Shown here: in pieces, positions 1 to 51,376 of the stretch
Numbering within the stretch: the stretch's first letter is position 1
How the letters are laid out: the number at the start of each line of letters is the position of its first letter
DNA from: Psilocybe cubensis
Lineage: Eukaryota
Assembly (NCBI GenBank): GCA_017499595.2
Contig: CM039005.1
Location: forward strand, 2,728,001-2,792,000
Direction: 5' to 3'
Length of the DNA: 64,000 nt
Position numbers and translations under genes: made by a program
Notes under the pieces: generated by a model
Database searches by the model: none
Seen by the model: the letters and a program-made list of their open reading frames with translations, nothing else
Told to the model about the DNA's origin: nothing

Positions 1-2032
1 CTTCTCACGCACTGCTAACCATCCTAATGGAAAGACAACTCAATGTGGTCTTGCAATCAGTGTAAACGATCTTGTGGCGGCCAGACAAATTAGCCAGTGT
101 GCGAGTCACATAAGCAATCACTTTTGTTCACGTTGCAAGGTTTTCGGACGCGCCAGTCTGGGCAGGGTCGACATCCAGGAAAAAGATTGGGCACCCAAAG
201 AAAATAACACTCTACGAGAGCATGCCGAGAAATGGAAAGCCGCGACCAGCAAAAAGGATAGGGATGATCTTTTCACAAAAAATGGGATGCGTTGGTCTGA
301 GCTATGGCGCCTGCCGTACTGGGATCAGGCGAATATGCTGGTCGTTGATTCGATGCATTGTCTTTTGGAAGGACTGGCTCAGTTTCATTTTAGGAAAGTA
401 CTGAAGCTCCAAGATGTCGATGCTCTCTCCAGAGAGGTGGGCGAAGACGCGTTTGAGCTGGAACCATCGATGCCCAATGAAGCATATATCGAAGCCCAGG
501 AATTAACTGATAATGACCTACAACACATCTCTCAGATCTACAAACTTCTTGTTTCTCCCATCCTTGTGGTCGAGCTAGCGTCTTTGCCCACCATATCATT
601 GGATCTTAATACACGTCTTCAAAGAAAGAACCTCAAGTCGTTACGCTTTGTTGCTGAAGAACTGTACAACGCAGAAGGACTAACTTTAACGGTTGCAGCC
701 ACTAATAGAAAGGCCGAGTACTGTGATGCTCTGGTCCAATGGGTATGATCCAGCATTCTTTTTATGTCTCTTCACTGGCGCTCATTTGAAGCTTCAGCGC
801 ATGGCAAAACCACTTGTCTCAGAGAATGTAAAAGTAAAATTTGGGACTGTGAATGTCATGAAGCATATTCGAGACGTTATTCGAGACACGGAGGTCCCAG
901 CGTGGCTTCCTTCTGTCCCTCACAACTTTGGTCAAGCTGCAGCGGGATCGTTAAAAGCAGATGAGTGGCGTACCATGAGCACAATCTACCTTCCACTTGC
1001 CCTCATTGCTATGTGGGGCGAAGGATCGCAACAGACAAACACATCAACAGCAGCAGTAACGCGTCAAGTCCTTGATCATACTATGCACCTAGTCTCGGCA
1101 ATTAATATAGCATGCATGAGAACAATGACGAAGAAACGTATGGACGCCTACCTCTTTTTTATAACTTCGTGGCTTGAAAGCCTTATTATTCTCCATCCGG
1201 AGGTCAGACCTAGACCAAATTGTCATATGGCGATTCACATATATGAATTCCTGGTCCTATTTGGTCCTGTGCGATCGTGGTGGTGTTTTCCATTTGAAAC
1301 ATTGATTGGTCAATTGCAAAGGCTTCCGCATAATCACAAATTTGGTATGTACTTTTTTGCTATTTAATTTCATGATATTAACATTCATCGCTTGGTAGGT
1401 CAGCTTGAGGCTACAATGCTGTCCTCTCATACAAAATCAACGAGGTTGAGACGTTGGCTTAACCGGGCTGATTGTCCTCCTGCTCTCAAGGAATGCCAGA
1501 AAGCATTCAATGAATGTTTTTCAGATGCTACGTCGCTGCGTTCCATTGAAAAGCAAGTTCCCACATCTGCATTTATCCCCGTCCCAAGCCAATTAAAACA
1601 TCTGATTTCTGATCATGAAGTTGCATTTCGCGCTCGCCATAACTTTGATGATACGATATACACGCGAGCTGAGACCCACATTGGAAATAGTCTGATCTTG
1701 TACCACCATAATGGCAACTTAACCTCCTCTCCGATCCCGGCGTCGATTCAGTATATTGTGGTGAACAAGAAGAACATGGTTACTTACATCGTCCGACGAC
1801 AATTATCTGCACCAACGACAACCGTTGATCCTTACAGGCATTATCCGTATTTCCCTGCCAAAGTATATTCAAATGAACTGTCGGCTGAATTTACTCTCGT
1901 CCAACCAGAATGGGTAATGTCGCATTATGCTCGGATAAGATTGGACGACGAAAGAGCAGTGGTTCTCACTCTTGCTCGTGTATGGTTATTTTTTGTTTTA
2001 AGACACAGATACTGATGCCTGTACAGGACTGA
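1..2032 (+). mobile_element. CACTA/EnSpm (Tnp2/Transposase_21-type) transposase, 3' part, spliced; 5' end lies outside the window
   Basis: ORFs 74-748, 693-1367 and 1392-2015 join through GT-AG introns (~742-798, ~1346-1399, ~1980-2026; last exon GACTGA). Motifs typical of fungal CACTA transposases: NDLVAARQ..ASH..NHFCSRC, SELWRLPYWD..VVDSMHCLLEG, LPSVPHNFG..GSLKADEWR, HMAIHI..FGPVRSWWCFPFETLIG. Confidence 0.88.
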
Positions 2033-2149: not shown

Positions 2150-3107
2150 GCATCCTCCCGGGGGGATACGAAGAATTCGAGCGCCTGAAAAGTTTGTCTG
2201 TGAAAAAATGCCAATATCTCCCTTATAAGCCTTTTTTGACTAATACCTATGTGCCGAACCTATTGATTTTCTGCCATTCTACCATTTGAAGAACTCGTGC
2301 TTAATCGGAAAAATCTACTAATTGACACTGGATGCCGAAGCCTTTACGCAGTACATCAGGAGTTAGAAGAAGCAGAAGGTTGACGATGTTCTGATTCATA
2401 ATGCATTCAATGTGAATACATCCCGGTGTGGACCCTTGACTGAACGTAGCACGAACTTGATAGCGCTCTCCAACTATGTTGAGCAGGGACATCACAGCTG
2501 ACTCTTCAACACCAATCTTCGGTTTCGTCGTTCATTTGATGAGCACCGAATAGAGCATGAGTGGTACACACTCGGCATCCAACCCGCCACAAAGTATAAT
2601 CGCCCTGGAGATGGACGTAGAAAAAAATTCCATCAAGTTTAACCTCCCTTTTGTCTTGAGGAATGGTGGACTTTCTATGACCCAGAGTAGTTGTCTCTTC
2701 AATGCAAGAAATCAATAATTTCAAAGAGCTTTCGTTGTCCTTATGTGGAGAGAAATCGACTGGTAGAGCGGTACACCCCGGTCTTAGACTATCCTCCATA
2801 GCCGCACCGTCATCAATGAACACATCTGAAGGGCGTCGTCAGCATAGATCGATACGAGAACATAAATCGCAATGAAGCTAGCCTTCCCCCTCGCACTTTC
2901 ATCTTCCTCCGAATCGACTCCTTCGTCTACTTGAGCTTCCATATCCAGAAACTGGCGGATTTCTGGATCGACCTGAGAAACATGTGTGAACGAAACCAGT
3001 CTTAGCCCTGAGGAATTGTTGCATACCTTTTTCATTTTGTCTATGCGAGGAGGATTATGGTTGTGAATGTCTATCGCTTTACTTTTGTTGCGCGTGCGCG
3101 TTACCAT
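2150..3107 (-). pseudogene. Spt5/NusG-like gene relic (acidic N-terminus, NGN, first KOW), with stops and frameshifts
   Basis: Spliced translation IRQFLDMEAQVDEG..|DVFIDDGA..YTLWRVGCR|IGVEESAVMSLL..CIHIECIMNQNIVNLLL..DFSD*..VLVKKG/YKGDIGI aligns exon by exon with the intact gene at 10076-13081. It ends convergent on the transposase. Confidence 0.8.
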
Positions 3108-5055
3108 GTCGGTTTATCACAACAAATAGAGAGCCTACAGTTCTTATTATATCAATGACATAACCTGACGCATTCTGACATTGCACTCTTGGGTGGGAGT
3201 TTATGATATCGACATTGCATTCATTCAATTCTTACAGTTTATGACATCGATGTATACAGATTTTCTTGACTTATCACACTGAACGTAAGAAAAGCGCTAG
3301 AATATTATAAATGGTGATATAACCGTGCAGATGATTGGATGTTGTCAGGCAATGAGGGCATGCAGAGGCGTACGAACACTACGCTCACAGTTGAGGGACG
3401 GAGTGAGAAGGAAAGCGATCCATCATGTCTGGCACCGCAATATGTACCGTCGGAAATTTCAAGCCGCTCAAGCCGGTGGTGATCTGTGTCCGGCAGAGCG
3501 GCATCAAATTTTGAGTGGGATATCATAACGCTGTTGACAAGTTCTCACGCTTTCTTCTCTCTCTCTTCTGACCACCACAGTAGGGTTACTCAGACATCCC
3601 GCCCGCGCGCTCGCGCTCCAGCAAATCCGCCCACCGTTGTATACCAAATAGGAGAACCCGTAAGTGCTATAAATTATCTTTGTAGGCTAATAATATTGAC
3701 GCTCGTTCGAAATCCAGACATGGTATAATCTATACATCCCCGACACTGCGAGTTTGTTCTAGCCAGGTCAACTCTGAGTCTGGCTGCACTCGCATAACCA
3801 TTTGAGGTGCGACAACATCAGGATCAACGAGTCTGCCTGCTTCGTTATTGTCCCCGGATGCCCGCGCCCAAGACGCAGAGGAGTTCTTCGAAACAGTTCG
3901 GGTTATCAGGTACGCGTTTCTCGAAATATCTTTCATGTTTGCTTCGCTGAAATGTATCCATTCAGTTGGTACCCGTTCATAAGTGCTCTCGCGGGAGACA
4001 ACAGGGCCGGCTCGTTGCACCTTTCTGACTCGGAACGAATGCGCTCAGTATAAGCAATCTCTCTGCAATTGACGACGTCTCTCGAAATGCTTGTTTGCGT
4101 CTCTGAAGCGACAATAAACACTCTCGTGTTCCTTGGGCCTTCGACTGTGATATGAACGCAGTCTCTGTAAGTCTTTCCAATTTATCACCGTGTCGCCAGT
4201 GTTCAAAGATCCTCTGCGCCTCTAGTGCCGTATCTATTCTTTTCGAGCACCAGCCGCTTTCAACCTGGGTCTGAGTGAGTTCCTTCCGCTTCATCGCTAA
4301 TTTCTGCATCCGTACTAATGCATACAACAACACACAGGCAGCCATGTTGCCTCTTTGTGGCGATGGAACAACGATCCGCGTATCTGTGTATAGAGACGGA
4401 GAATGTCGCGCTGTTGTTGTGTTTTCATCGATGACTGAAACAGTATGTTATCGGCGGGAAACCGACTTTCCGACGGCTAATGTAGTCTAAATTTTATACT
4501 CAATTGTTTTAGCAAATATACATCGATTACCCCTTTATAGATTCATAATCATTTCGCTCGTAGACGTTACCTACACCCTCTTTTCTTCTGCGCTTTGTCG
4601 ACCCATCCTGTTGTTTCATTATGAATTAGTGCACTTTTAATTAATGCTACCACCATTTGGTCATTCTTTGGATCGGTCGCTGTCACCCCTCCCTCGTTTT
4701 TTGATTTTGGCATATTTGTGCAAACAACACGTTGCCGATGTAGAGTGAGGATTCGCCTGACACCTCAGAGGAATACATTACCCGAAAGACCGGAAAGGTT
4801 CCTATCGTGATCATTACTTCAAACACCGAGAACCCGACCGCAAGTACCTTCCTTTGTTTTCCAGTCTACTATTTTCATCAATTACTTTTTATAACAGATG
4901 TCTGAACACTTCAGGGTTATCGAAGACATGGAAGACGAAGATATGATGGAGGACGGACCACCGGACGATCTCTATTTTCATCCTGAACCAGGGAGAGAGT
5001 CTCTGTCTGGGGACGAACAGTGGGTCCCAGGTAGTAGGAAACCTTATCAGCCAGA
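2882..5055 (+). repeat. Near-identical direct duplication of ~49363-51535 (Spt5 5' exons, promoter, leader, start of coiled-coil gene)
   Basis: Sequence and ORF translations match at an offset of about 46480 with only scattered SNPs. Confidence 0.95.
3404..3570. promoter_or_regulatory. Palindromic putative bidirectional promoter, variant A copy 1
   Basis: Inverted arms 3454-3476 and 3490-3511 (aaatttcaagccgctcaagccgg / ccggcagagcggcatcaaattt). Outward-facing cgctttccttctc (-) and cacgctttcttctctctc (+) tracts. Lies between divergent genes. Confidence 0.6.
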
Positions 5056-8000
5056 TGCCCTGCTCTATGACCCCCGGTCGGAGTATTCGAGCAATACTCC
5101 TCAAGGACAAGCAGAAGAGTTTGAATCGCATGGAACATCTCAACCAAAGCGCCTTCTAACACCTGCCCTAGCCATTCCATTGTCGGCTACCAAGCAGAAG
5201 AAGCGTGCACAGACTACATTGCCGAAACCTCACTCTGATGAAGCAGCTTCAACGGATGTCTCACTGACTGATAGAAGCGGTCGACTTGAAACCTTGCCAA
5301 CTGTTCAAAGCCTTGTCGAAGCCGCGGCCGGTCCTTCATCTGACGATCCACACCGGGATCAGCTGATTGACTTCGGGGTTCCTCACAACAAAAGACGTCG
5401 CAGGCATTTAAAGGTGCCTCAAGAGGCGAAAATTGTCATTTCTAATGAGAAGTTAAGGAAGCAGGTTCGCACTTTGCAGCATTTAGTGCACACTACAGAA
5501 GCAGTAAGTGATAGATCTCTCCCATGAATTCTGCAGCCAATTTTTGCTACAGGGAGAAGTATTGAAAGTAAGACAAGAGAAGGCCGTTCTGCAATCGGGT
5601 CTTCATGAGGCCCAAACTCTAATTTCTTCACAAGAGGTGGGTGTAACATCATTCCCATTTCCCTTAAACTAAATATTTTGCAGGACCGGACGGCTGATGT
5701 CTCTTCGGAACGAGATGACCTAGAGGTAAAGTTGAATACTTCTGAAGTAGGTTTAACCTTTCTGATTGAACTAAATGTATTCACGCTTACATACGCCACC
5801 GTAGAGACAACTGGAGACTGTCGAATCAGAGCTAACAGAGGCCCGAGTGAGTAGTAGTGTTTCTTGTCTCTTGATCAGTCATCCTTCATGATGCTTTTGC
5901 AGAACAACGTACGAAATTTACTTGCCGAGACTGAATCGAAGGACCACATTATATCCAATCTCAATACCGCTATAACCCTAAAGAGTGAAGAGATTTCCGT
6001 CTAATAGAGGCGGTAAATCTGAAGGATAAAGAAATCTATGACCTCAACACCGCTGTGGTAATGAAGGTTACGGATCTTTCCCGCCTGCACACGAACATAG
6101 CACTCAAGGATGCCGAAATATCTAAATTACGTGCAACTATCAACAAGAAGGATAATGCCATCTTCAATTTACGGGCTATGATTCATTCCGCTAAAAGCGA
6201 TCTCAAATATTTAGACATGCTGAAGGTACGCCTGATCCGCATTTGCGTCGGCCCGCCCTAAAAATCTGTGTGGGAAGTCCGATCTCAGGGACACGGAAAG
6301 TAAACTGGCTGAAGCAAATCGTCTTATCAAACTGTTGAGCGACACAAAGGAAGCCCACACCAGCTATAGGCAGGAACTCGATACCCTACGCAGCGATCTC
6401 GAGTCCGATCGCAAATCATTGCAGCATAAAATGCAGGAGCACCTGGAGGCGGTTCAAACACATGAAATCACAAGACATCATCTAAACTTGCTCACCAAGA
6501 CGGCAGAGGATACTGTCGATCATGGAAAGTCTAGACTCTTTAAAGCCAACTCTATTCTGGCCGACGCCTCCAAAACCTTACAGAAGGCACATGAGTTGCA
6601 TACCGTAGCTTTTGAAAGGTTGAAAGATGCGTCTGAGTTGCGCGATTCAGCTTTGGCAATGAAGGCGTTTTATGGGACTTATGACAATTCTCTTGGCGAT
6701 TACAAAGCTACGGAGACTATTATTCGTTCTACGGAGGGTTCGTCGAAGGGAGAAAGCCATGCAGACAATTTGGTTGCCCCTACATATTCGAGAAAGACAA
6801 GAGGATCAAATGAACAACACACAAAGGCCAGTTGACTATAATCCAATGCTATTGCCTCAACGTCCGCTTATCGAATCCTAGACCTTTGGATCAAAAGTTG
6901 AAAATGTTTCTGTCGACTTCCCCGTTGGTAACGGAAAGGGGTTGCAAATTGAGGAGGATGAAGACCAGGAAAGCGCAGTTAATAGTAAGATCGCAAACAC
7001 AGACGCTACCGTTGGTTCTGCACTCCGGGCATCTCTTAGTGGTCCACGTTCAAAGGAAGAGAAAAAAGACTCTATGGATGGATATGCGAGTGAGAAGGAA
7101 AACAAAGAGCTTCAAGACGAATATCTAGTCAGTGCCGTTTAGTTCTAGTCAATGCATACTGATTGTTGGAGGTAGGCACTTGTTCGAAGCATCATGAAGG
7201 ATAAGTTTGGCATAGAAAGGGATACAGATTTCATTGATCACATCCCGCCAAATCCCTCCGATATTGCTCTGTTCATGAGCACAAAGAGTCCAGATGATGG
7301 TCCCAATGCAGCAGATCTTCGCATTGACATGAAAGGGGATACGTCCAGCAATTGGAACGAAGCACTCATTTCTATCCTAGTAACATGTGCAGCCAACAGC
7401 AAGGTTTCACAACTCCCGGATGTTCCTGATTGGTCCAAGGATTACCTGTCACAAAATTTCTACCAAGAAATAGAGCGCGCAAGGACCATCTGGGGGGATA
7501 ACCAATCTAAAGTTAAAGCAAGAGTAAACTTGAAAAGAGAGAAGGAAGCAAAAAGGAATCGAAGGAATAGCAGACGTTCAAATGTGAGCATTTCGGAGTC
7601 TACGTAGTTCAACAACTAATATAAGCATACAGAAATATTCCAAGCGTTTGTTCACAGTGAAAAGAATGATCGCAGAAAGTGAGAAAAGGGACGACACCGC
7701 AATATTTAACCTATGGAGTCGTTTGCTATCACTTCTCGAGGCCCTAGAGGAAGATGGAATGAGCTCGGAGGACTCTGAAGCTGACGATGATGGGGATACC
7801 GTATATCATGTCAGGCAGATGCCGTATCGTCGCAGCGTTGACAAGCATATGGCAATCATCGACGCTGAAACAAAGCGTTATAAACGCACCATCGCTACTC
7901 AAGGCTCGAACAAATCACGAAGAATCAGAGGGGAAGATATATTTTCGCTTTGCAGACCTTTCGTCGGGAAACCGAGACCACTTTATGCACCACCTTGGTT

Positions 8001-8097
8001 AAAACAGCAGACCCAAACGACTATCAACAGTCTGAAAATTCCAGAAAAACATCCATTCAAATTTTTCGAGATCAAGGTGCCGGACCCGAGTGCATGA
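4898..8097 (+). CDS. Multi-exon acidic/coiled-coil protein with C-terminal GMSSEDSE domain, copy 1 (apparent 1-bp frameshift near 5997)
   Basis: Homologous to 16634-20735 and 51377-55187; all three end HPFKFFEIKVPDPSA*. Many short GT-AG introns. The exon starting ~5903 reads ..KSEEISV* unless one C is restored. Confidence 0.75.
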
Positions 8098-10075: not shown

Positions 10076-13000
10076 TCATAGTGTCTTTTTCTTGTACCGT
10101 TCTTTTAACTGAGTCATAACGTTAGAGTTAAGGTCTCTGTCTTTTTTGGACTCGGGAACTGAACATAGGAAATCCGTGCTGAGTGTAAATCGCTCCCCAG
10201 TCAAAACGTCTACACAACCTTTGGATACGGTGACTACAGCGACCAAGACTGTTGGATTGTCCGAGAGACTTTCATGATGAATGCGACGAACGAATTTCCC
10301 GCAATGTTCCCCCTTGATAACCACTAGAAGCCCGTTGTCATGTATCGGATTCGCATACTTCGGAGTGACCCAAGTGGGGTCCACCACAGTCCATGAACTG
10401 TACTTTTTGCACTTTAGCACGAGGTTGTTGACCTCCCAAGCAGTTGTGGCAACTACCGCTTTCTTGTTGTACTGTCCGCCGTCAACTATGACGTTCAGGC
10501 TGATACCCACCAGTTTCGGGTTCAAGAGAACATGGTTGCATGTAGGGGGATTTAGAGAGTGACTGGTTTCAGTCATAGAGGAAACAGATTCAGACGGATC
10601 TGATAAGGCAAGACTTGTAGAATGTATAGCCGGGTCAGGTGTCCTTGAGGAGGGGTCCCAAGCTAGAGTCATAGACTCTTGGGAGTACATCGGTGTGTCG
10701 CTCCCTGACGCGATCGTTTGCGGTACGTCAGGGAGAACTTCGCGGATGTGCTTCAGGGAAGACTTCGGCTTAGGCCGGAAAAAATTTGGCCCAGGATCAA
10801 GGAAAAGAACAAGCTCGTTGAAGGACCTTGCATTCAAATTAGACAGAGGATATCCACGTTAAAAACAGACTTACGACATTTCAACAACATCATCATAATC
10901 CACAACAATTGTTTGAAACGGTGCAAAGGGATTAAAACGGGTGAGTTGAATAACAAGTTGCAGTTCAGCGTTGTCTATATGGTGAAGGACGTCTTTGATT
11001 CGTCCAGTCTCGCCCTTGCGCGCGTGACGATATTTTTGTATAATGACCTCTAAGCCACACCATGGATGTTTTGAAGGCCTTTTTTCAATTGGATTTAACT
11101 CCGATATGAGAGGAGATAGGGGCTCAGAAAACGCGGTGTCCAAGAGATTGACATACACCGAAAAATGCTGTTAAAAGGTAAGGACACGCTATGAGAAAAC
11201 CGGTGAATATGTCAAGCCGCAAATTTACTCACTTCCACCGTCTCAAACTTGTCATTGTCTGCCCCATAGTTATTCTGATTAGATACTGTTGCGATATTGA
11301 CCACAGCGCCAGATACTTCCCCCTCTTCTGCCTGCAAACTCCTTTCCGTAATCAATGTTTCTTCCAGTTCTGACGTTACACCTGATTGATCCAGAGTTTG
11401 AGCGATTTCTTCCGAATGCACCACCATATTCCCTAGCGTCATCTGCGAATCTATTGACATGGCTGCGTCCGTTCCTACATCCGTCTCTGTTGAATCTTTT
11501 TGAAGATCATCATCCTCTGTCGGTACGTGGCGTTGTTCTTTTCCATTGATGGGCGCCGAAGGTATTTCAGCCCTTGTTTCCACGATCGAAATGAGACCAT
11601 CCGCTGAACTTCTCGTTATTAGTGCATGATCTTCGTGGACCCCAACGACCCAACCCGTGTAATCCAAATAGGGGCCGCTCACAACTCGAACGAATTGTCC
11701 AATTTTTGGCGATTTGCGAATATCTAGCCATGTTCCCCTAACAGTGCGGGATATTTCATGTCCACCTTTGATTGTTGACTGTTCTGCTTCCACGTCATAT
11801 GTGCCTAGCATTTTCAAAACCGCAGGTTCCCACTTTGCGGGCCTATCCGCAATGCCTGGGGTACGAAATAAAACCTCTTCTTCCAGTTGTAGGCACCATT
11901 CCCGAGGACGTGGCATACGCGCTCGCATTATGTCGGGATGATTGCTGCTCCTAAACATGGAGAAATGGGAATACGGAATATCCATGACCAAATTAGCAAT
12001 GGAGGCAAAGTCAAATTCTTTTTCCAACAGTCCATGATCAAACTTGAGAAGTCCAAGCGTGTAAGATCCATCCGCATTGCAAATAATAGGTGTGGAAATG
12101 AGTTTGCGGGCTTCTTCGGGTTCGAAAAGTTTTGCTGGAGGCACCAGTACCGATGACTTTCTCTTCCGTGACTTTGCAGATTGTAAGTTTAACCGAGGAA
12201 TGAGAAGAACCTGAGCGCCCCAGGAGAAAGTTGCTGAAACCAACCCAACGTCCCCCTTGTATATTCCTTTCTGAATCAAAACCCAGCTCCCAGCGTCAAA
12301 ATCCTTCTTGACATCCCTCATAGTCAGAAGCTCGTGTTGATGGCTCCGATCCACTATTTCGCGCTTGATTCCGAGGTGGTTACGAAGGATCCCAGGCGTG
12401 GACAAGAGAAGGTTTACGAGTGCTGAATCCATGATCTCCTCAACATAGATACTGCCACGTATAGAGCCGCGAGTGAAAGCGGAACGAATGTGATGGATCT
12501 CCCTTGCGCTCTGGAGAAGAGATATAACAGCCGCATCCTCGGAACCGATCTTGAAAACTTATTACAGAAATAATCAAGGCAAAATATACAAACTTACCCG
12601 GCATCCAACCCTCCAGAGAGGATAGTCAGTGTCAAGCGGAAGGCGCGCAATCGTCTCCTGGAGCTTGGTCATGCTATCCTCTTCCTCCAAACGTCTATCC
12701 AAGCGTGGGCGACGAGGACCTGTTGCTTGAGCCTCTAGGCGTGCAAGTAGTCGGTCAAATTCATCCTCCTCGACGCCATCTTCGATACTGTGGAATGCCA
12801 GAGAGCCTCTATGGTCATCCCCGCCTATTTCCGCCCCGTCGTTGATGAAGGCGTCTGTACACAGAGTCAAAACAAGTCTATCGTGACACTATGTACAGCT
12901 CACCTTCTAGATCCCGTTCTGCAGACGTAAACTGCTCCTCGTCAGAAAGTTCTCCATCATCAGCTACCTGTGCCTCCATATCCAGAAATTGGCGGACGCT

Positions 13001-13081
13001 CCTCATGGCCTAAGGAATAAACCATCAATATCAAATATCGAAATGGTCTGAACGTTGATCATGCATACGCACCCGTTTCAT
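10076..13081 (-). CDS. Divergent Spt5/NusG-like protein (acidic N-term, NGN domain, several KOW motifs), ~900 aa, about 6 exons, apparently intact
   Basis: MKR|AMRSVRQFLDMEAQVADD (Spt5-type N-term), LWRVGCR|IGSEDAAV..IRSAFTRGSIRGSIYVE (NGN), GSWVLIQKGIYKGDVGLV and IGQFVRVVSGPYLDYTGWVVGV (KOW), AWDPSSRTP (resembles a CTR repeat), LVVIKGEHCGKFVRRI. Canonical splice sites between ORFs 12574-12870, 11212-12432, 10871-11158 and 10076-10837. Confidence 0.85.
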
Positions 13082-13364
13082 CCTTTGGGGTATGTCGTTC
13101 GATGAAATGATCAATTTAATTAGATGAATAAATTAGCTCGAACTTAGGAATCTATATGATGTTGGGGTGTGTTCAGTATCTCTTCATTTCTAAGCACTGG
13201 CAGGACAATTGCGATCTCATTTTTTCTTTCATTGTCCAACAATGTCTATTTCTACCACTTCTACCACTGAGCTACTGCGTAATAGTATATATTCTGGTTC
13301 TTGTTCAACATCTTAAATCCATGCCATATCTTACCTGAAAGTTAGTCTGAGCAGAGACAAGTGG

Positions 13365-13495
13365 TGGAGAGAAGAAGAAGAGGAAAAGCGTGACAGTGAG
13401 TCAGGTCTGAATAAAAGGCGCAGAAGTTTGATGCCGCACAAGCCGTGTACGTGATCACAGGGTTTATCTCCCAGGTCTCAGCATCTGCGGAATTA
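13365..13495. promoter_or_regulatory. Diverged half-degenerate copy of the palindromic promoter upstream of the intact Spt5-like gene
   Basis: gcagaagtttgatgccgcacaagccg at 13420-13445, with a minus-strand tcacgcttttcctcttc..ccaccac..ctcagac tract at the same spacing as in the other copies. Confidence 0.55.
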
Positions 13496-15102: not shown

Positions 15103-16106
15103 CCAAGAGTCAACTATAGTGGAGGGACGGTGGTTGAGCAAGAAAGCGTTCCATCAAGTCTGGCACCGCAATAAGTACCATCGGAAATTTCAAGCCGCTC
15201 AAGCCGATGATATGTGACCGGCAGAGCGGCATGAAATTTTGAGGAGATATCACAACGCTGTTAGCAATTTCTCACGCTTTTCTCTCTCTCTTCTGTCCAC
15301 CACAGTAGTGTTACTCAGATATTCCGCCCGCGCGCTCGCTCCGCCTCCAGCAAATCCCACCCACCGTTGTATACCAAATAATAGAACCCGTAAGTGCTAT
15401 AAATTATCTTTGTAGGCTAATATTAACACTTGTTCAAAATCCAGACAAGGTATCATCGATACATCCGCGACACGGTGCGATTTCGTTCCAGCCATTGCAA
15501 CCAGGTCAAGTACTCTGAGTCTGGCTGCACTCGCATAACCGTTTGAGGTGCGACAACACCTGGATTGACGAGTCTGCCTGCCTGCTTCGTTATTATCCCG
15601 GATGCCCGCGCCCAAGGGGCAGAGGAGTTCTTCGAAACAGCTCGGGTTATCAGGTACGCGTTTCTCGAAATATCTTTCATGTTTGCTTCGCTGAAATGTA
15701 TCCAACCAGTTGGTACCCGTTCATAAGTGCTCTCGCGGAGGCTATGGGCTGTCTCGTTGCGCCTTTCTGACTCGGAACGAACGCGCTCAGTATAAGCAGT
15801 CTATTTCATTCTCTGTAACTGACGACATAATTTACACAGATCTTCTGTGTCTGACCAAAGCATTCTTACAGATAGTCGTTTTGATAGATGACATGCCTTT
15901 TCTCCAAGGCAAGTTTCACCTCACTTCACTCCGAGCTTCACCTGACCGTCGTCAAATTCTTTCCAGGTGTCTCTCCATTCTCTCAGTCTCAGACCACTAG
16001 CCGCTTTCCACCGATTTCTGGTTCTTGACATCTAGTGCGCCATGACACCTCACTCGGGCGATACATCAAGAATCCAAGCATCTGCGTACGAAAAGCAGAG
16101 AATGTC
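15103..16106 (+). repeat. Variant B promoter plus spliced leader (1004 bp); left arm of a near-perfect long inverted repeat with 23089-24092
   Basis: Reverse complement of 23089-24092 with a few SNPs. Palindrome at 15185-15239. Confidence 0.95.
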
Positions 16107-16633
16107 CTAATATTTTGTAACAAGCTTTCATGGCCAACATATCCGCTCTGGTGACTCGCACATCCCTTGTCTGTCACAACAGATGGTAAGACAACCTGCC
16201 CAAGTTCACATTTCCCTTTGAAGAGACTTAAAACTCCTCGCTTGGGTCAAATAATTCAGTAGACACGACAGCATGCTTAGCTTGATCTTGTTCTTCCTAC
16301 TATCTAAAGTTGACCAGGTTCTCCGGAATGTGAAGGTGTGCGAATCTCTTTCGGCTTAAATACTAGTAACAATATTAGCTAAATCTTTGGAATCCCAAAC
16401 ACATCATTTTCATTCCCATAAACATTGTTGATGCATATGAGTGAAGCATAGCATATATGACAAACTGACTCGCTTAATTGCCTAACTGACTTCTCATTGA
16501 TGCAGGCAGGCAGCCTTGGACCTCTACCCGAAGGATCGGAAAAGTTCCTATCTCAATTATTACCCGAACACCGAGATCCCGGCTGTAAGCATCTCCCTTT
16601 GTTTTCCAGTCTATATTAACTCTTTATCGCCAG

Positions 16634-19600: not shown

Positions 19601-20735
19601 GAACAGGTTCTGCTTCCGCACCGAAAGGCCGGTACTCAAGCAATGTGTCGTTTATGAGGGAAGCCAAGAAAGGAACAAGGGGAGGAAAAGGTGCATTAGA
19701 GAAGGATGATAAGGAAGTGCGAAAACAATACCTTGTGAGTTTTCTTTTGCATATGTCAACGGGTGCTGACTGGGAGGTAGGCTCTTGTTCGAAGCGTTGT
19801 GAAGCGTAAGTTTGGTATAGAACGAGACGCGGATTTTGTCAATCACATACCACCAAGTCCCGGCGACATTATTCGATTCGAAACCACGAAGAGCCCAGAA
19901 GATGGCCCACAAATAGCAGACCTTCGTATTGATATGAAAGGCGAAATATCCAGCAAATGGAACGAAGAACTCGTATCTATACTGGTTACATTTGCAACCA
20001 ACAGAAAGGTCTCACAATTCCCAGATCTCCCTCATCGGCCTCAAGACTACCTAGCTCAAATGTTCTTACAAAAGCTGGAGCGCGCAAGAACCTTTTGGAG
20101 AAATCACCAGCCCAAGGCTACCGAACTGGGAACAATAGAAACCGACGCCGAAAGGAAAGCAAGAGTGGAGGCAAAAAGGAAAAAAGATGAGAAAAGGAAT
20201 CGAAGGAATAGTAGACGTGCAAGTGTGAGTATTTCATGGTCTATGTAGTTCAACAACTAATATAAGAATACAGAAATATACCGATCGTTTGTTCACAGTA
20301 CAGAGGATGATCGAAGAAAGCGAGAAAAGGGGCGACACTGCGATGTTTAACTTATGGAGCCGTTTGCTATCACTTCTCGAGGCCCTAGAGGAAGATGGAA
20401 TGAGCTCGGAGGACTCTGAAGCCAACGATGGGGATACCGTATATCATGTCCGGCAGATGTCGTATCGTCGCAACGTCGACAGGCACATGGAACTCATCGA
20501 CACTGAAACAAAGCGTTATAGACGCAATGTCTCCACTCAAGGCTCGAACAAATCTCGAAGAATCAGAGGAGAAGATTTACCGTCGCTTCGCAAACCCTTC
20601 ATAGGGAAACCAAGATCACTTTATGGCCCAGCCTGGATAAAGCAGCAGACACAGACGACCATTAACAGGTTGAAAATCCCTGAAAAACACCCATTCAAAT
20701 TTTTCGAGATCAAGGTGCCGGACCCGAGTGCATGA
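16634..20735 (+). CDS. Multi-exon acidic/coiled-coil protein with GMSSEDSE domain, copy 2
   Basis: ORF segments 16634-17296, 17700-17909, 17910-18497, 18501-18755, 19153-19809, 19799-20248 and 20289-20735 are linked by short GT-AG introns. Long heptad-rich middle region and a poly-E/D tract. Confidence 0.8.
18675..19050 (+). repeat. 118-bp tandem repeat x3.2 (58-nt intron plus 60-nt exon DSINTSKGKEKAPTDAPMVV)
   Basis: Units start at 18675, 18793, 18911 and 19029. Each has a GTAAGG..CTAAT..TTTAG intron and an in-frame phase-0 exon. Confidence 0.92.
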
Positions 20736-23088: not shown

Positions 23089-24092
23089 GACATTCTCTGC
23101 TTTTCGTACGCAGATGCTTGGATTCTTGATGTATCGCCCGAGTGAGGTGTCATGGCGCACTAGATGTCAAGAACCAGAAATCGGTGGAAAGCGGCTAGTG
23201 GTCTGAGACTGAGAGAATGGAGAGACACCTGGAAAGAATTTGACGACGGTCAGGTGAAGCTCGGAGTGAAGTGAGGTGAAACTTGCCTTGGAGGAAAGGC
23301 ATGTCATCTATCAAAACGACTATCTGTAAGAATGCTTTGGTCAGACACAGAAGATCTGTGTAAATTATGTCGTCAGTTACAGAGAATGAAATAGACTGCT
23401 TATACTGAGCGCGTTCGTTCCGAGTCAGAAAGGCGCAACGAGACAGCCCATAGCCCCCGCGAGAGCACTTATGAACGGGTACCAACTGGTTGGATACATT
23501 TCAGCGAAGCAAACATGAAAGATATTTCGAGAAACGCGTACCTGATAACCCGAGCTGTTTCGAAGAACTTCTCTGCCCCTTGGGCGCGGGCATCCGGGAT
23601 AATAACGAAGCAGGCAGGCAGACTCGTCAATCCAGGTGTTGTCGCACCTCAAACGGTTATGCGAGTGCAGCCAGACTCAGAGTACTTGACCTGGTTGCAA
23701 TGGCTGGAACAAAATCGCACCGTGTCGCGGATGTATCGATGATACCTTGTCTGGATTTTGAACAAGTGTTAATATTAGCCTACAAAGATAATTTATAGCA
23801 CTTACGGGTTCTATTATTTGGTATACAACGGTGGGTGGGATTTGCTGGAGGCGGAGCGAGCGCGCGGGCGGAATATCTGAGTAACACTACTGTGGTGGAC
23901 AGAAGAGAGAGAGAAAAGCGTGAGAAATTGCTAACAGCGTTGTGATATCTCCTCAAAATTTCATGCCGCTCTGCCGGTCACATATCATCGGCTTGAGCGG
24001 CTTGAAATTTCCGATGGTACTTATTGCGGTGCCAGACTTGATGGAACGCTTTCTTGCTCAACCACCGTCCCTCCACTATAGTTGACTCTTGG
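23089..24092 (-). repeat. Variant B promoter plus leader, inverted copy (right arm)
   Basis: Reverse complement of 15103-16106. Palindrome at 23956-24010. Confidence 0.95.
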
Positions 24093-25351: not shown

Positions 25352-26081
25352 TCAAGCCGTAAGAAGAGGCCCTGGTTTGATGACCCTGTGACGTTTGCGA
25401 CCCGCCAAATACGTGAAACGGGCGCGTACCAATTCCTCAATCGGCCAACAATTTTCATAATTGATCAAATGAGGATATTTCTGCGTGGTCTGGGGATTTC
25501 TTAGTCGCGACACTCCATGATATTAATTTATCAAGATACTGTACCAGGTGTTTGATATCATCCAGCCTGTCAGCGGGTTGCTCAGAGAAAGGCTTTGTTG
25601 CATCCAGAACGTTTGCAACGTGTTCGTTGACCAAGGTCTGCCCAGAATAACATCAGACTTCGTTCTAAAGTATGACGGAACATATAATATTGAATTCACA
25701 TACCTTTAGCGCATTAAAATCCTTTTTCTCCCACCCAAGCTCTTGTTCAACACTGAATCCACCGCGGCGAGGAGAACCCATCTCTCCCGCAGGCCGTGGA
25801 ACAAGGAGACTGGTCCTTGCAATCGCAGGGGTCAATTCCCGACGATATGGGGCTGGTCGTGGAGGCTTAGCAGCGGCGTCAGGTGGGGTCCGGCGCACAG
25901 GGGGAAGGATATCGATATCCTCGGGTGGTCGGTGGGGAACCTGGCTAAGTCCTATTTCGTGTTGTGACATTAAATGATTGCCATTGTCGGTGGGTAGCTC
26001 GGTCAAAGCAAGTAGTGTGCCCTTATCAGCGCGGAGGCTACCAAGGGCATAGAAGGGAGGAATAGATTTGAAGGTCTGCAT
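25352..26081 (-). CDS. Stand-alone PxPxGExGxPxRGG...YENCWP domain protein (3 exons); near-identical to the N-terminus of the protease gene
   Basis: 25381-26192 duplicates 35429-36240. Reads MQTFKSIPPFYA..VPRPAGEMGSPRRGGFSVEQELGW..|..|..YENCWPIEELVRARFTYLAGRKRHRVIKPGPLLTA*. Confidence 0.7.
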
Positions 26082-26195
26082 CGCATGAGCGTGTACTGGG
26101 ATGCGGGCAATCGTGTAGGTGAGACTCTTGCCGAAAAGCATGCTTATAAATTCTTCGGTAGTAAAAGCCAAAAATGATAACAAAGGGGCCTCGTG

Positions 26196-29170: not shown

Positions 29171-29809
29171 AAAGATGTCGCTAGCACGACTTGCCTGGCG
29201 AGGTGACGCACATGGACGACAATGCTCTCGTCTTTGCTGTGCCGCTCCGCCGCGAAACGGAGGCGAAACAGTTGCAGAAGTAGCCGATGGCGTAACAGCA
29301 GAAGCAGAAGGTGAATAACCAGAGATATTAAGTGAAGCGGCAGCGAACCAGAGATGTCAGTAGGAATTGTTAGTTTTCCGGATAGGAAATGTACTATAGG
29401 AAATTAGGTAGACAGAACGGAAATACCTGTGTAGAACAAGAGGAAGGAAACGGTGTAACGAACGACTTGAGTGAGAATCGTGTGTGTCTAATCGCACAGT
29501 TAGCAAACAGCGGGTACACGACTTACCAGACATGCTTCAACAAAAGTTTTGCGGTGTCTTGTTCACTGAACTGGATCTGCGCTGAATGACTGACCAAATA
29601 TACAACATTGTGAAGAAAATTGAGTTACTTACGGCGAGCCTACGCGCTTAACATCTGTGTTGGCACTGTCTTATCTTCGATTACACCTTACGCACAATAT
29701 CGTTCGGTTTAGCTCCCTGTAGTATTTACATGGTACACTACGCTAGACTGTTTACATGGATTGCTGCGCTAATGTGCTACTTCACCCGCTAGATGTGCAT
29801 GGATGGAAC

Positions 29810-29997
29810 AGAAGAAGAAAGCGTGAGAATATGGCCAGCTCGCCAACAATGTACCGCAGAAGTTCGATGCCGCTCATGCCGTCGCCAAATTGGTGATGCG
29901 CGTGATTGTTGGCACGGCATCAGCGGCAGGAGACTTCTGCTCTGTATCAAGGGGATTTTGTGACGGTGTGACGCCCTTCCTCTTCTCTCTCAACACT
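29810..29997. promoter_or_regulatory. Diverged variant C of the palindromic promoter
   Basis: Arms 29856-29882 (gcagaagttcgatgccgctcatgccgt) and 29914-29940 (acggcatcagcggcaggagacttctgc). Flanking agaagaaagcgtgagaa on the left and cgcccttcctcttctctctc on the right. Confidence 0.6.
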
Positions 29998-38800: not shown

Positions 38801-39617
38801 GGCGCAGAGGATCTTTGAACACTGGCGACACGGTGATAAATTGGAAAGACTTACAGAGACTGCGTTCATATCACAGTCGAAGGCCCAAGGAACACGAGAG
38901 TGTTTATTGTCGCTTCAGAGACGCAAACAAGCATTTCGAGAGACGTCGTCAATTGCAGAGAGATTGCTTATACTGAGCGCGTTCGTTCCGAGTCAGAAAG
39001 GTGCAACGAGCCGGCCCTGTTGTCTCCCGCGAGAGCACTTATGAACGGGTACCAACTGAATGGATACATTTCAGCGAAGCAAACATGAAAGATATTTCGA
39101 GAAACGCGTACCTGATAACCCGAACTGTTTCGAAGAACTCCTCTGCGTCTTGGGCGCGGGCATCCGGGGACAATAACGAAGCAGGCAGACTCGTTGATCC
39201 TGATGTTGTCGCACCTCAAATGGTTATGCGAGTGCAGCCAGACTCAGAGTTGACCTGGCTAGAACAAACTCGCAGTGTCGGGGATGTATAGATTATACCA
39301 TGTCTGGATTTCGAACGAGCGTCAATATTATTAGCCTACAAAGATAATTTATAGCACTTACGGGTTCTCCTATTTGGTATACAACGGTGGGCGGATTTGC
39401 TGGAGCGCGAGCGCGCGGGCGGGATGTCTGAGTAACCCTACTGTGGTGGTCAGAAGAGAGAGAGAAGAAAGCGTGAGAACTTGTCAACAGCGTTATGATA
39501 TCCCACTCAAAATTTGATGCCGCTCTGCCGGACACAGATCACCACCGGCTTGAGCGGCTTGAAATTTCCGACGGTACATATTGCGGTGCCAGACATGATG
39601 GATCGCTTTCCTTCTCA
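38801..39617 (-). repeat. Variant A promoter plus leader, 817-bp inverted copy of 3404-4220
   Basis: Near-identical reverse complement. Palindrome at 39510-39567. The F-box gene starts ~260 bp to the right. Confidence 0.95.
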
Positions 39618-39880
39618 ACAACGACAAGATCTAACAAGGTTCACCTTCACCGTTTAGCAAGTTCGCGTTTTCTTGTGAGTCCCGACAAATGCAAGCATCA
39701 AAATCAAACAATGACCTTACCCAACTAGAACATTTCACACTTTCTTTTAATACTCTACTTTTTCTCAAGGGCCTCAACCTATCAAGGTCGGCCTCAGATC
39801 TAGTCACGCAATTAATTTACTGAAAACACATATCGAACCTTTTTTCCCCTCAGAAACCTATATCTAACACAGTGAACAGC

Positions 39881-41335
39881 ATGCCCAACAGTGCAATCAA
39901 CGTATCACAAACCCCAAAAAGAGGAAAAATTGTTAACATGGCCCCAGAACCTTTGAAAATCGAATCGTCGCTTATATCCCGTCTAAACGCCGATATTGTC
40001 GGTGAAATATTTACCGTTTACGTCGACCAGTGGATAAAAGACAACCGCCAAGGAACGACACCCACTCAGCCAGCTATTTATGTTCTTTGCAAAGTAAACC
40101 AAGAATGGAGAAGGCTTGCCCGCCGAACGCCGCGACTTTGGAGATGTATAATCATATGGTATTCGACACGAACATGGAACACCTGTGAAGCTCTCTTATC
40201 TGACTGGATACAATGCGCCGCATCATCACCTCTTCAAGTTTATGTTTTCTCTACAGAAGCGCCTGACACAGAACTGCATCCGTTTCTGCGCGAAACCCTG
40301 ATGCTAAATGCATCTAAATGGTCTTCTTTCATATGTTTAGGACCCACGCCATTTTGGGGCACACCCGTCAAGGAATATTGGTCGTTCCCACAGCTCAAAT
40401 CCATTGCGATTAGTTTAGACGACGACACATACTGTAATTTCAGCGATGCACCACTTCTTAAGGAGTTGGTCGTGAGAAATTTGCAAAAGAACGTCAGTGT
40501 CCATTGGAGCCAACTAACACTAGTTGACATAGCAGTCGAGAAGCTTGAATATGCGATTTTACCGCTAAAGGAACTTAAAGTTGTACAGGATCTTAGGTTA
40601 ACGGTTGAACAATGGCTACTTGAAGACCAGTTAACCGTCGTGACGCCAAAGTTGCACCCCCACCTAAGAAAGCTCTCTTTGCACATGCCAAAACAGACAT
40701 CGGTCATTATATTCAATGCGCTCTCGACCCCCGCCCTGACCGATGTCTCTTTATACTTGCAATCAGACCCCAACAAAAGCGACGAAGATTGGCTACGTTC
40801 CTTTTTAGCATTGATCTCCAGACCAGGGCGACTTCAATCTCTGACAAGTCTAAAACTCGGCCGCCTTGGTAACATCACTGAAGCAAAGTTTGTCAGTCTT
40901 CTGGCACAGATTCCTTCAATCATCAATATAGAGATACTCAACCCTGGATTTGTGATCTCTGATACTATCGTTGATGCCATGAACCCGCAAAACGGCATAC
41001 AGGGAAGATGCATGCTTCCCAACGCGACACACGTGATGTTCAAGAATGTGAAGATCCAATTCGATGGTTTTCTTCTTCTCAACATGCTCAAACAAAGGAA
41101 AAAATGCACAGAACACCCGAACGATTCGAATGCAGTACTACTCAACAAAATACCTGTCATCACGTCCTTCAAGAAAATCGAGTTTTGGTACAACAACCCT
41201 GAATGGATTAGGTCAGATTCGTTCGAAGACCCGAACCTAGTCATGTTATTCTTCTACGAGGTCTTCAAGCTCAAAAATTCCAACAAAATCCTTCTTAAAT
41301 TCTGCTGCCTGCATGACGATCCGTTTGAGGACTAA
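39881..41335 (+). CDS. F-box protein with LRR-like C-terminus (agaric type), intronless CDS
   Basis: ISRLNADIVGEIF..IYVLCKVNQEWRRLARRTPRLW (F-box), followed by LxxL repeats (FPQLKSIAI, APLLKELVV, HPHLRKLSL, TPALTDVSL). Confidence 0.85.
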   Translation: MPNSAINVSQTPKRGKIVNMAPEPLKIESSLISRLNADIVGEIFTVYVDQWIKDNRQGTTPTQPAIYVLCKVNQEWRRLARRTPRLWRCIIIWYSTRTWNTCEALLSDWIQCAASSPLQVYVFSTEAPDTELHPFLRETLMLNASKWSSFICLGPTPFWGTPVKEYWSFPQLKSIAISLDDDTYCNFSDAPLLKELVVRNLQKNVSVHWSQLTLVDIAVEKLEYAILPLKELKVVQDLRLTVEQWLLEDQLTVVTPKLHPHLRKLSLHMPKQTSVIIFNALSTPALTDVSLYLQSDPNKSDEDWLRSFLALISRPGRLQSLTSLKLGRLGNITEAKFVSLLAQIPSIINIEILNPGFVISDTIVDAMNPQNGIQGRCMLPNATHVMFKNVKIQFDGFLLLNMLKQRKKCTEHPNDSNAVLLNKIPVITSFKKIEFWYNNPEWIRSDSFEDPNLVMLFFYEVFKLKNSNKILLKFCCLHDDPFED

Positions 41336-43888: not shown

Positions 43889-43933
43889 TGCGACGGTAGT
43901 TGAACTGTAAGTTGAACTGTAAGTGGTAGAAAG

Positions 43934-44718: not shown

Positions 44719-45016
44719 AATATTATTAGCCTACAAAGATAATTTATAGCACTTACGGGTTCTCCTATTTGGTATACAACGGTGGGCGGATTTGCTGGAG
44801 CGCGAGCGCGCGGGCGGGATGTCTGAGTAACCCTACTGTGGTGGTCAGAAGAGAGAGAGAAGAAAGCGTGAGAACTTGTCAACAGCGTTATGATATCCCA
44901 CTCAAAATTTGATGCCGCTCTGCCGGACACAGATCACCACCGGCTTGAGCGGCTTGAAATTTCCGACGGTACATATTGCGGTGCCAGACATGATGGATCG
45001 CTTTCCTTCTCACTCC
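44719..45016 (-). repeat. Variant A promoter core, 298-bp inverted copy of ~3400-3697
   Basis: Identical reverse complement. Palindrome at 44905-44962. Sits between the divergent BTB (-) and nucleotidyltransferase-like (+) genes. Confidence 0.93.
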
Positions 45017-46149
45017 TTCACTGCATACTGTGCCACTTACGGACGCTCCACGAAACGCAGCGCTTAGGACTGCGCGTTCTTTACTCCTCAGCCTATATAT
45101 TTTATCTCAATATTAAAACTGGAATCTCAGTTGTGTTCGCCACAACTCACACTGTAATGTTCTCCTATGATACAGGGCTCTTCACAGAGGTTACAGGAGG
45201 TGCACTTTAATAAATACCTCTCTCATCCAAGAACTTGAAGACATGCGGGAGTCAGCATGATGTAATCAAAATTATCTGCCCTCGCAATCAAGCCTGACGT
45301 CGTTCTTTACTTGACCTCTCTAGACGGCGAGAGAGCTTTTTCGCACTCATATGGTTTACATCCATTCTGACAAAAATAGCCGCTCTTCACCATTGTCATC
45401 ATCTTGATTGCGCAATACTCAGGCGTGGATAAGGCTCCAGGTGCCTAAAATTTCTCCAATGTTTCGAACTCTCAATTGTGTCGGCAAATATCACACATCA
45501 GGTTCAGCATTGGAGAAATATTCGGCAATTGTATCGGGGATTTGGCAGGCACAAAAATTATCTGTTTTATTTCTCAACCAAAATGCACTTCAAGGGTGCG
45601 ATAGGTTCCAATAAACGCGTCAAGGTAATTTGTATTAAATCAACTGGTCGTTTTCCGTTAAACGCACCACGCTGAAACTGTGGGTGAACCTGAAGATGAT
45701 CATAATGTAGGAACGTTTTGGGGCATATATAAACTACAATCCGCATCTTTGCCAAGTGATCAAACGCCAAGATTTGAAATAAAAGTGCCTCATTCTCTTC
45801 CCTGTCGGATTTAAACCGGAAGGTCATCTTACGTCCTGAGAAATCCATGTGGGCCGCCTTAAATGTTATCCTTTGCGTTGACCTTGAGGCGCTCATCCAC
45901 CCAGCACCATGTCAAAAGAAACAAAGAAGTTTCGGCTGATGGCACCAGCGCCGTAGACGAACCCTCGTTTTCGCCATCTTCTACAGGTTTGATCTTGGAC
46001 ATGTGTTCTGAATCTCACTTCTATCCAATCAAAGGACATTCAGATATCTCTACTGAAACGGCAAACGTGCTTTCAAGCTTGAGAACGGCAAGGAATACAG
46101 CGATATAAATGGTATCATTTTATAGCTGCTCTTAGATAGCATTGCCTTA

Positions 46150-49587: not shown

Positions 49588-49883
49588 GTCGGTTTATCAC
49601 AACAAATAGAGAGCCTACAGTTCTTATTATATCAATGACATAACCTGACGCATTCTGACATTGCACTCTTGGGTGGGAGTTTATGATATCGACATTGCAT
49701 TCATTCAATTCTTACAGTTTATGACATCGATGTATACAGATTTTCTTGACTTATCACACTGAACGTAAGAAAAGCGCTAGAATATTATAAATGGTGATAT
49801 AACCGTGCAGATGATTGGATGTTGTCAGGCAATGAGGGCATGCAGAGGCGTACGAACACTACGCTCACAGTTGAGGGACGGAG

Positions 49884-50050
49884 TGAGAAGGAAAGCGATC
49901 CATCATGTCTGGCACCGCAATATGTACCGTCGGAAATTTCAAGCCGCTCAAGCCGGTGGTGATCTGTGTCCGGCAGAGCGGCATCAAATTTTGAGTGGGA
50001 TATCATAACGCTGTTGACAAGTTCTCACGCTTTCTTCTCTCTCTCTTCTG
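49884..50050. promoter_or_regulatory. Palindromic promoter, variant A copy (palindrome 49934-49991)
   Basis: Identical to 3404-3570. Confidence 0.6.
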
Positions 50051-51376
50051 ACCACCACAGTAGGGTTACTCAGACATCCCGCCCGCGCGCTCGCGCTCCA
50101 GCAAATCCGCCCACCGTTGTATACCAAATAGGAGAACCCGTAAGTGCTATAAATTATCTTTGTAGGCTAATAATATTGACGCTCGTTCGAAATCCAGACA
50201 TGGTATAATCTATACATCCCCGACACTGCGAGTTTGTTCTAGCCAGGTCAACTCTGAGTCTGGCTGCACTCGCATAACCATTTGAGGTGCGACAACATCA
50301 GGATCAACGAGTCTGCCTGCTTCGTTATTGTCCCCGGATGCCCGCGCCCAAGACGCAGAGGAGTTCTTCGAAACAGTTCGGGTTATCAGGTACGCGTTTC
50401 TCGAAATATCTTTCATGTTTGCTTCGCTGAAATGTATCCATTCAGTTGGTACCCGTTCATAAGTGCTCTTGCGGAAGACAACAGGGCCGGCTCGTTGCAC
50501 CTTTCTGACTCGGAACGAACGCGCTCAGTATAAGCAATCTCTCTGCAATTGACGACGTCTCTCGAAATGCTTGTTTGCGTCTCTGAAGCGACAATAAACA
50601 CTCTCGTGTTCCTTGGGCCTTCGACTGTGATATGAACGCAGTCTCTGTAAGTCTTTCCAATTTATTACCGTGTCGCCAGTGTTCAAAGATCCTCTGCGCC
50701 TCTAGTGCCGTATCTATTCTTTTCGAGCACCAGCCGCTTTCAACCTGGGTCTGAGTGAGTTCCTTCCGCTTCATCGCTAATTTCTGCATCCGTACTAATG
50801 CATACAACAACACACAGGCAGCCATGTTGCCTCTTTGTGGCGATGGAACAACGATCCGCGTATCTGTGTATAGAGACGGAGAATGTCGCGCTGTTGTTGT
50901 GTTTTCATCGATGACTGAAACAGTATGTTATTGGCGGGAAACCGACTTTCCGACGGCTAATGTAGTCCCAATTTTATACTCAATTGTTTTAGCAAATATA
51001 CATCGATTACCCCTTTATAGATTCATAATCATTTCGCTCGTAGACGTTACCTACACCCTCTTTTCTTCTGCGCTTTGTCGACCCATCCTGTTGTTTCATT
51101 ATGAATTAGTGCACTTTTAATTAATGCTACCACCATTTGGTCATTCTTTGGATCGGTCGCTGTCACCCCTCCCTCGTTTTTTGATTTTGGCATATTTGTG
51201 CAAACAACACGTTGCCGATGTAGAGTGAGGATTCGCCTGACACCTCAGAGGAATACATTACCCGAAAGACCGGAAAGGTTCCTATCGTGATCATTACTTC
51301 AAACACCGAGAACCCGATTGCAAGTACCTTCCTTTGTTTTCCAGTCTACTATTTCATCAATTACTTTTTATAACAG

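Follow-up and report, generated by a model that had tools for sequence, protein, structure and literature searches.

Genes and element copies in the window

The window, by which we mean the whole 64-kb stretch of DNA that was analysed, carries a recurring palindromic element in seven full copies (c1 to c7) and one half copy (h), each found where the first-pass annotation had placed it. In c1 (variant A), the left arm lies at 3454..3469 on the minus strand (GAGCGGCTTGAAATTT in the outward reading), and the left core lies at 3391..3417 on the minus strand, where CGCTTT (3417..3412) and a pyrimidine tract form the predicted start region of a leftward Spt5-like gene. The right arm (3496..3511, plus strand; GAGCGGCATCAAATTT) is followed by the right core (3548..3571, plus strand; CGCTTT and a CT tract) and by a leader (3572..3665, plus strand) which has GTAAGT at 3660 as its end and is common to all six copies of variants A and B. 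Variant A is also represented by c5 (39450..39617) and c6 (44845..45022), both in reverse orientation, and by c7 (49871..50051). The right core of c5 is at 39473..39468, its arms are at 39510-39525 and 39552-39567, and its left core is at 39604-39609; c6 sits in a shared block of merely 298-318 nt by blastn (44715-45012 / 44715-45032), and c7 lies in a duplicated form of the c1 locus, near-identical to it for ~2.1 kb. Variant B comprises c2 (15137..15299), with the left core at 15148..15143, arms at 15185-15200 and 15224-15239 and a right core at 15275-15280 followed by a CT tract, and c3 (23896..24058), which is the reverse complement of c2 and lies inside a 1004-nt inverted repeat (15103-16106 / 23089-24092). 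Variant C is c4 (29801..29992), with the left core at 29823..29818, arms at 29860-29875 and 29921-29936, and a right core at 29972-29977 that reads CGCCCT and is followed by a CT tract. The half copy (13361..13439, minus strand) consists of an arm (13439..13424), a 33-nt spacer, CGCTTT (13390..13385) and a CT tract, and has no partner arm.

Outward from each half of the element run a short leader and a GTAAGT resembling a 5′ splice site; three halves are followed ~280-380 nt on by a correctly oriented ATG, which homology supports in two of them. To the left of c1 lies a fragment of an Spt5-like gene (2304..3035, minus strand), with an ATG at 3035, MKK, a 54-nt intron (GTATGC..CAG), VDPEIRQFLDMEAQ and an NGN-like exon. 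After the intron the frame reads VDPEIRQFLDMEAQV, and the gene, on the left of c1 and c7 alike, is apparently truncated after the NGN-like exon (near 2300 at c1). Another Spt5-like gene lies past the half copy (10079..13334, minus strand), where a leader of ~50 nt is followed by GTAAGA at 13334, a ~325-nt 5′-UTR intron with a TTAG end, an ATG at ~13006 (MRSVRQFLDMEAQ) that opens the frame MRSVRQFLDMEAQV, and NGN and KOW exons. The N-termini of both genes match MKKIDPRIRQFLDTEAQV, the N-terminus of a Psilocybe SPT5-like homologue. Furthermore, the open reading frame at 11215-12558 (minus strand) contains Pfam KOW and KOW1_SPT5 domains, and among named proteins it is closest to SPT5-annotated ones from Psilocybe and Pholiota (41-44% identity), so that the earlier label of this neighbour as Spt5-like is upheld by domains and homologues. 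The distance from the CGCTTT core to the ATG is 377 nt at c1 (3412 to 3035) and 379 nt at the half copy (13385 to 13006), and the intervening sequences are unrelated.

On the left side of c5, GTGAGT at 39675 precedes an ATG at 39882 or 39938 and a 503-codon frame (39675..41332, plus strand), which had been called an F-box gene and is without a Pfam match. Indeed, the F-box, BTB and NTase-like labels proposed for neighbours of the element all lack a Pfam match, even at E ≤ 1, and we do not retain them. Three paralogues of a coiled-coil family lie on the right side of c1 (4895..8094, plus strand), c2 (16589-20732) and c7 (51374-55184), and their C-terminal part resembles Basidiomycota-wide hypothetical families (Atlas 0.97). 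In 6/6 right halves of variants A and B, GTAAGT is reached 112-115 nt past the core via the common leader. The coiled-coil ATG is ~1.35 kb from the right core, a long stretch for a 5′ intron in a fungus, and the leader is presumably joined to the coiled-coil gene. The second paralogue contains a tandem repeat (18675-19072) of a 118-nt unit in ~3.4 copies at 96-100% identity, and at 53336-53409 a coiled-coil paralogue has this unit once only. The right half of c4 faces a degenerate Spt5-like copy, while fragments or nothing obvious are faced by c3 on both sides, by c5 on its right and by c1 and c7 on their left, where the Spt5-like gene is truncated. Genes are arranged head to head at c1 (Spt5-like on the minus strand; leader and coiled-coil gene on the plus strand) and at c5 (leader on the minus strand; 503-codon frame on the plus strand).

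The window contains several further features. Three consecutive open frames (2-2012, plus strand) border on the truncated Spt5-like gene to the left of c1. They gave no Pfam hit, and their likeness to Plavaka-type transposases comes from Atlas features alone, with a score (0.89) short of the 0.9 line. Three paralogous frames (25668-26273, 32651-33067 and 35716-36291, all on the minus strand) have in common a C-terminal ...GxPRRGGxxxEx(x)LGWxKxDxxxLKV motif and also gave no Pfam hit; two of them lie in an 812-nt duplicate (25381-26192 / 35429-36240, 99.6% identity). A ~280-nt repeat, unrelated to the dyad, occurs in three copies (57136-57418, 58441-58719 and 61545-61827; 94-96% identity, one inverted). 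A reading of 27389-28241 as a reverse-transcriptase fragment found no Pfam hit and was dropped. Between the c6 leader and the gene to its left, the contigs of both DNA-like runs skip 461 nt (43926-44386) and join 43925 to 44387, where 8 letters fit either side; this stretch has internal inverted repeats (43994-44034 / 44266-44305) and resembles a polymorphic insertion of the MITE type with a target duplication of 8 nt. Contig depth in both runs is ~21-24 at ~27000-35000 versus ~42-50 at 36800-43500, and the former region may be present in only one haplotype of a dikaryon (hemizygous).

Segmental duplication and the number of independent copies

In an alignment of the six full copies of variants A and B, c1, c5, c6 and c7 are identical over the element (variant A), as are c2 and c3 (variant B, which is ~87% like A). 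All six lie inside near-identical segmental duplications of 298-3188 nt at 95-100% identity, both direct and inverted. By self-comparison, 2846-5998 pairs with 49327-52511 (95%), 38801-39617 with 49884-50700 (99.6%) and 39321-39617 with 44715-45012 (99.7%), and the inverted blocks pair 3404-4220 with 38801-39617 (817 nt, 99.9%) and 15103-16106 with 23089-24092 (1004 nt, 99.6-100%). Several block junctions are reproduced in the contig sets of two DNA-like runs from the same organism (among them the left side of c5 at 39588, c6 at 44700, and a c1/c7-type continuation at 38801), which shows that the duplicates are not an assembly artefact. Gene conversion focused on the element was rejected, since c1 and c7 are near-identical over ~2.1 kb (2890-5000) and not just over the element. 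Variants A and B diverge by ~13% over ~700 nt, uniformly and with many indels that are not multiples of three; this difference appears to behave like neutral divergence between duplicates and is uninformative on constraint. A coding test of the right module found 5 substitutions in the longest ungapped block, too few to inform.

The apparent abundance of the element is mostly the product of recent duplication. Six of the eight copies counted in the first-pass annotation are explained in this way, leaving three dyad variants and one half copy, and once duplication is removed there are five independent half-site lineages, namely the left halves of A and B (A_L/B_L), their right halves (A_R/B_R), the half copy h, and the left and right halves of c4 (c4_L and c4_R). 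Variant letters at 29909-29941 point to at least one extra c4-like copy elsewhere in the genome. The lesson is that recurrence inside one window can arise by duplication, eight copies here coming down to about five independent half-sites.

We consider it distinctly unlikely that these copies belong to a mobile element, either a portable cassette or, for example, a DNA transposon whose long terminal inverted repeats carry the module subterminally and whose inward-facing promoters drive internal genes. In that case the dyad would be acted on by a transposase or recombinase, or would be a promoter inside the terminal inverted repeat. Such an origin would suit the inward-facing 1004-nt inverted repeat of c2 and c3, which encloses 6982 nt with a coiled-coil gene, and the inward-facing 817-nt inverted repeat of c1 and c5, but inverted segmental duplication explains both equally well. 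It would also suit the common boundary of three duplication events within ~50 nt of the left core, the other boundary being variable, and the repeat-rich surroundings with their Plavaka-like transposase lead (0.89, below the 0.9 line). However, target-site duplications are lacking, the sequences that flank c2/c3 and the A copies being unrelated and having no duplicated word; the block boundaries have no TG..CA, CACTA or CTRR termini and vary between events; the left side is flanked by unrelated single genes; and no relatives were found among the metagenome contigs scanned. Furthermore, the summed contig depth is 169-183 over the A block against 23-49 over unique sequence, i.e., ~3.5-8x single-copy by this rough measure, which is about what the window's own copies account for and argues against a high-copy repeat. 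A Helitron 3′ end, which has a hairpin ~10 nt ahead of CTRR, and an LTR, which has TG..CA ends and direct repeats, were also rejected, given that the block end is 50-70 nt from the palindrome, there is no CTRR and the right ends vary.

Conserved islands, fixed spacing and the unit of function

The arm consensus AARTTYGATGCCGCTC has 14 matches at up to two mismatches in the 64-kb window, against 0.16 expected, and none of 100 shuffles gave 14 matches; the 15th half-site is the diverged right arm of c4. A weight matrix derived from the arms and applied at a threshold of 12 bits (true arms score 21-27 bits) recovered 15 half-sites in the 64 kb, against 0.7 expected by chance, and found no further or weaker half-sites in the window. 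Other genes of the window, for example the WD40 and HEAT-repeat genes, thus have no weak copies. The recurring motif is a real, well-delimited cis-element, and what the first-pass annotation had observed is partly confirmed, its arm consensus being real and its count of copies reduced by duplication.

Outside the window, a metagenome scan with GCGGCWTSRAAYTT-N31-37-CACGCTTT returned 23 loci, none of which has the flanking CGGC, the CT tract or a dyad; these are chance matches, mostly resembling bacterial coding sequence. A text search of the literature with four 10-nt arm words gave, among the matches listed, primers or unrelated sequences only, and no description of the motif was found among them. 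Among the papers listed for Spt5 paralogues of Agaricomycetes and for bidirectional promoters of basidiomycetes, nothing specific was found.

Reading outward from the dyad centre, all five lineages have the same layout, in which a CGGC-NN-GAGCGGCWTSRAAYTT arm is followed by a spacer of 33-36 nt and then by CGCYYT and a pyrimidine tract. Compared in pairs, these lineages, which are paralogues of one genome and do not amount to a between-species test of the footprint, have a mean identity of 77% in the arm (22 nt) and likewise 77% in the core (18 nt). In the spacer the mean is 49% versus 46% in shuffled spacers, with the length held at 33-36 nt. Conservation is limited to two sequence islands, between which length alone is kept. 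The outward CGCTTT/pyrimidine tracts described earlier are indeed present, with CGCYYT past the arm in 15/15 half-sites, although at 33-36 nt and not at the 35-45 nt first estimated. Among all CGC+pyrimidine cores in the window, 13/24 stand at the fixed distance from an arm; the remaining 11 are without an arm, where 5.4 are expected. The two cores of a dyad are 131 nt apart in c1 and c5, and the CT tract runs into CCACCACAG in the right-hand leaders and the leader of the half copy alike.

Within the spacer there is an A/T-rich patch ~9-16 nt past the arm (gATATCa, cATATTg, tTTATTc, cATTGTt and gTATCAa in the five lineages), in which one T forms an invariant alignment column; the patch is possibly a weak TATA-like element. 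The paired CGG triplets noted in the first-pass annotation are present in each arm at defined spacing, as a CGG-N6-CGG direct repeat in A_L, B_L, h, c4_L and c4_R and with N5 in A_R and B_R. A GTGAT(C/G) word recurs at 3476-3481 and 29889-29894, within the inner spacers of variants A and C, and at 13452-13457, close to the half copy on its inner side; its distance from the arm varies, and it is too short to distinguish from chance.

The footprint also bears on whether the element is a relic without present function, i.e., an old promoter or repeat fragment passively duplicated in a decaying, repeat-rich and possibly silenced region, a reading that we regard as unlikely. In its favour, duplications at 95-100% identity explain 6/8 copies, several flanks are gene fragments, and two possible RNA runs gave no contigs on 26450-44700 (c4, c5 and the WD40 gene), a blank that is silent on expression. 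However, five lineages have kept the islands of arm and core and the distance of 33-36 nt between them while their spacers became random in sequence, which argues for constraint, and intact-looking genes lie past the half copy and on the left side of c5.

As single-stranded DNA, the full copies fold better than shuffled sequences (z −3.4 for c1, −6.7 for c2 and −4.4 for c4), whereas the half copy does not fold (z +0.7). The proposal that the palindrome extrudes as a cruciform and serves as a recombination or replication site, which the first-pass annotation offered as its alternative, draws on this folding (z −3.4 to −6.7) and on the clustering of duplication boundaries near the element. We think it very improbable and disfavour it, because the half copy keeps the conserved flanks without a hairpin, the arms hold to a consensus instead of co-varying, the loop length varies, and the duplication breakpoints fall outside the palindrome and not at its centre. 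The arms are also imperfectly complementary, at 14/16 positions in variant A and 11/16 in c4 (counted by eye). A structured RNA gene is not supported either, Rfam having no match to any described family (none at gathering score in the 64 kb, and none at E ≤ 1 in 3300-4300).

Several observations address whether the dyad or the half-site is the unit of function. The arms are conserved and the inner spacer varies, as had been reported, with the GAGCGGC heptamers separated by 26 nt in variant A, 23 nt in B and 45 nt in C (c4), and such variation is ill-suited to a single symmetric dimer across both arms. Arms of the left and right types keep their own differences in both A and B (TTCAAGCC versus TTGATGCC or TTCATGCC), and no compensatory change is seen between the arms of a dyad, which show instead the consensus with lasting arm-to-arm mismatches. 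Furthermore, the half copy lacks the palindrome but still has arm, spacer, core, leader and intron, together with an intact-looking gene. The simplest account of these observations would be that function resides in the half-site, and not in the dyad. The earlier interpretation, a dedicated dyad driving transcription in both directions, is partly supported: the geometry is promoter-like both ways, but the half copy, the variable arm distance and the lack of co-variation do not favour the dyad as such.

A half-promoter model and its relation to known promoters

On balance, we favour a model in which the element is a pair of half-promoters, each unidirectional and set head to head with the other, within an Agaricales gene cluster that is lineage-specific, repeat-rich and recently duplicated. 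The model is built on the motif, its spacing, the footprint pattern, the duplication structure, the gene orientation and the N-terminal homology as observed here, and from these we infer factor binding, start sites and two-way activity. Points that weigh against the model are the several copies with fragments or no obvious gene beside them, the length implied for the coiled-coil 5′ intron, the restriction of the footprint to paralogues, and the ascomycete origin of the start-site comparison. Each arm would be an upstream factor-binding box of ~22 nt, CGGC-NN-GAGCGGCWTSRAAYTT with its CGG-N5/6-CGG direct repeat. The spacer of 33-36 nt that comes next would matter by its length and not by its sequence, possibly with a weak A/T-rich TATA-like patch, and would be followed by CGCTTT and a pyrimidine-rich start region and then by a short non-coding leader up to the 5′ splice site. 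A factor bound to the arm would position initiation ~45-70 nt away, in or just past the CT tract, and would do so independently for each direction. Two such halves head to head would make up the palindrome and drive divergent transcription both ways in a lineage-specific, repeat-rich cluster of Spt5-like paralogues, the coiled-coil family and other genes, in which very recent segmental duplications would have carried most copies along, sometimes beside new genes or gene fragments. By analogy, the CGG triplets of the arms offer a lead towards Zn2Cys6 factors, and no Zn2Cys6 (Zn_clus) gene or domain was found among the window's 122 ORFs of at least 95 aa.

We also raise, as a doubtful extension, that the ~320-nt module (left core, dyad, right core, leader exon and 5′ splice site) might be a portable promoter-plus-leader cassette. 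Segmental duplication would then have repeatedly put the module before genes unrelated to one another, namely the Spt5-like gene, the coiled-coil gene, the 503-codon frame and the gene left of c6, a course of events that we put forward with reserve, and the near-fixed block boundary at the left core could, equally tentatively, be the edge of the cassette. If this were true, the regulon would grow by promoter capture, and a fast-evolving, possibly hemizygous cluster would be tied to one dedicated transcription factor.

Should the half-promoter model hold, the 22-nt box, fixed spacer and CT-rich start region would form a compact module with which to find the factor and its regulon in a mushroom-forming fungus, from a group with few defined promoter elements, and would also offer tool building a small bidirectional promoter. 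The element would also illustrate the spread of a promoter and leader to new genes by recent segmental duplication. As a kind, a divergent promoter with upstream boxes, it is already known.

MuDR is a DNA transposon with promoters inside its long terminal inverted repeats. Similarly, the inward-facing, near-perfect inverted repeats described here (c2/c3 and c1/c5) each contain a promoter-like module, but unlike MuDR they have no target-site duplications and no shared termini, occur in few copies and enclose no transposase.

In Aspergillus nidulans, the sense strand around start sites is TC-rich between −50 and +25, the start itself carries CA, and TATA occurs 30-45 bp upstream (PMC4046813). 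As far as the accessible part of this survey describes such core promoters, the predicted start region here resembles them in its TC-rich sense strand, in the CA after the tract (CCACCACAG) and in the A/T-rich patch ~22-27 nt upstream of CGCTTT. It differs in having the CGCTTT word at a fixed place, which that part of the survey, concerned with an ascomycete, does not describe.

Zn2Cys6 sites are composed of CGG triplets, arranged as CGG-N6-CGG direct repeats in the Hap1 type and as inverted CGG-N11-CCG in the Gal4 type. Each arm here has the Hap1-type CGG-N6-CGG (with N5 in A_R and B_R), but the conserved box extends well past the CGG triplets (WTSRAAYTT).

The yeast GAL1-GAL10 UAS is a divergent promoter with shared upstream sites. 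Aspergillus histone genes have bidirectional promoters of the divergent fungal type (PMC6900853). To the extent that the accessible part of the histone account portrays them, our element resembles both in that genes lie head to head, with ~130 nt between the cores and the boxes between outward start regions. Within the same limits, it differs from both in that each direction has its own box, 33-36 nt from its own core, and in that the module, as predicted from sequence, is confined to a lineage-specific duplicated cluster.
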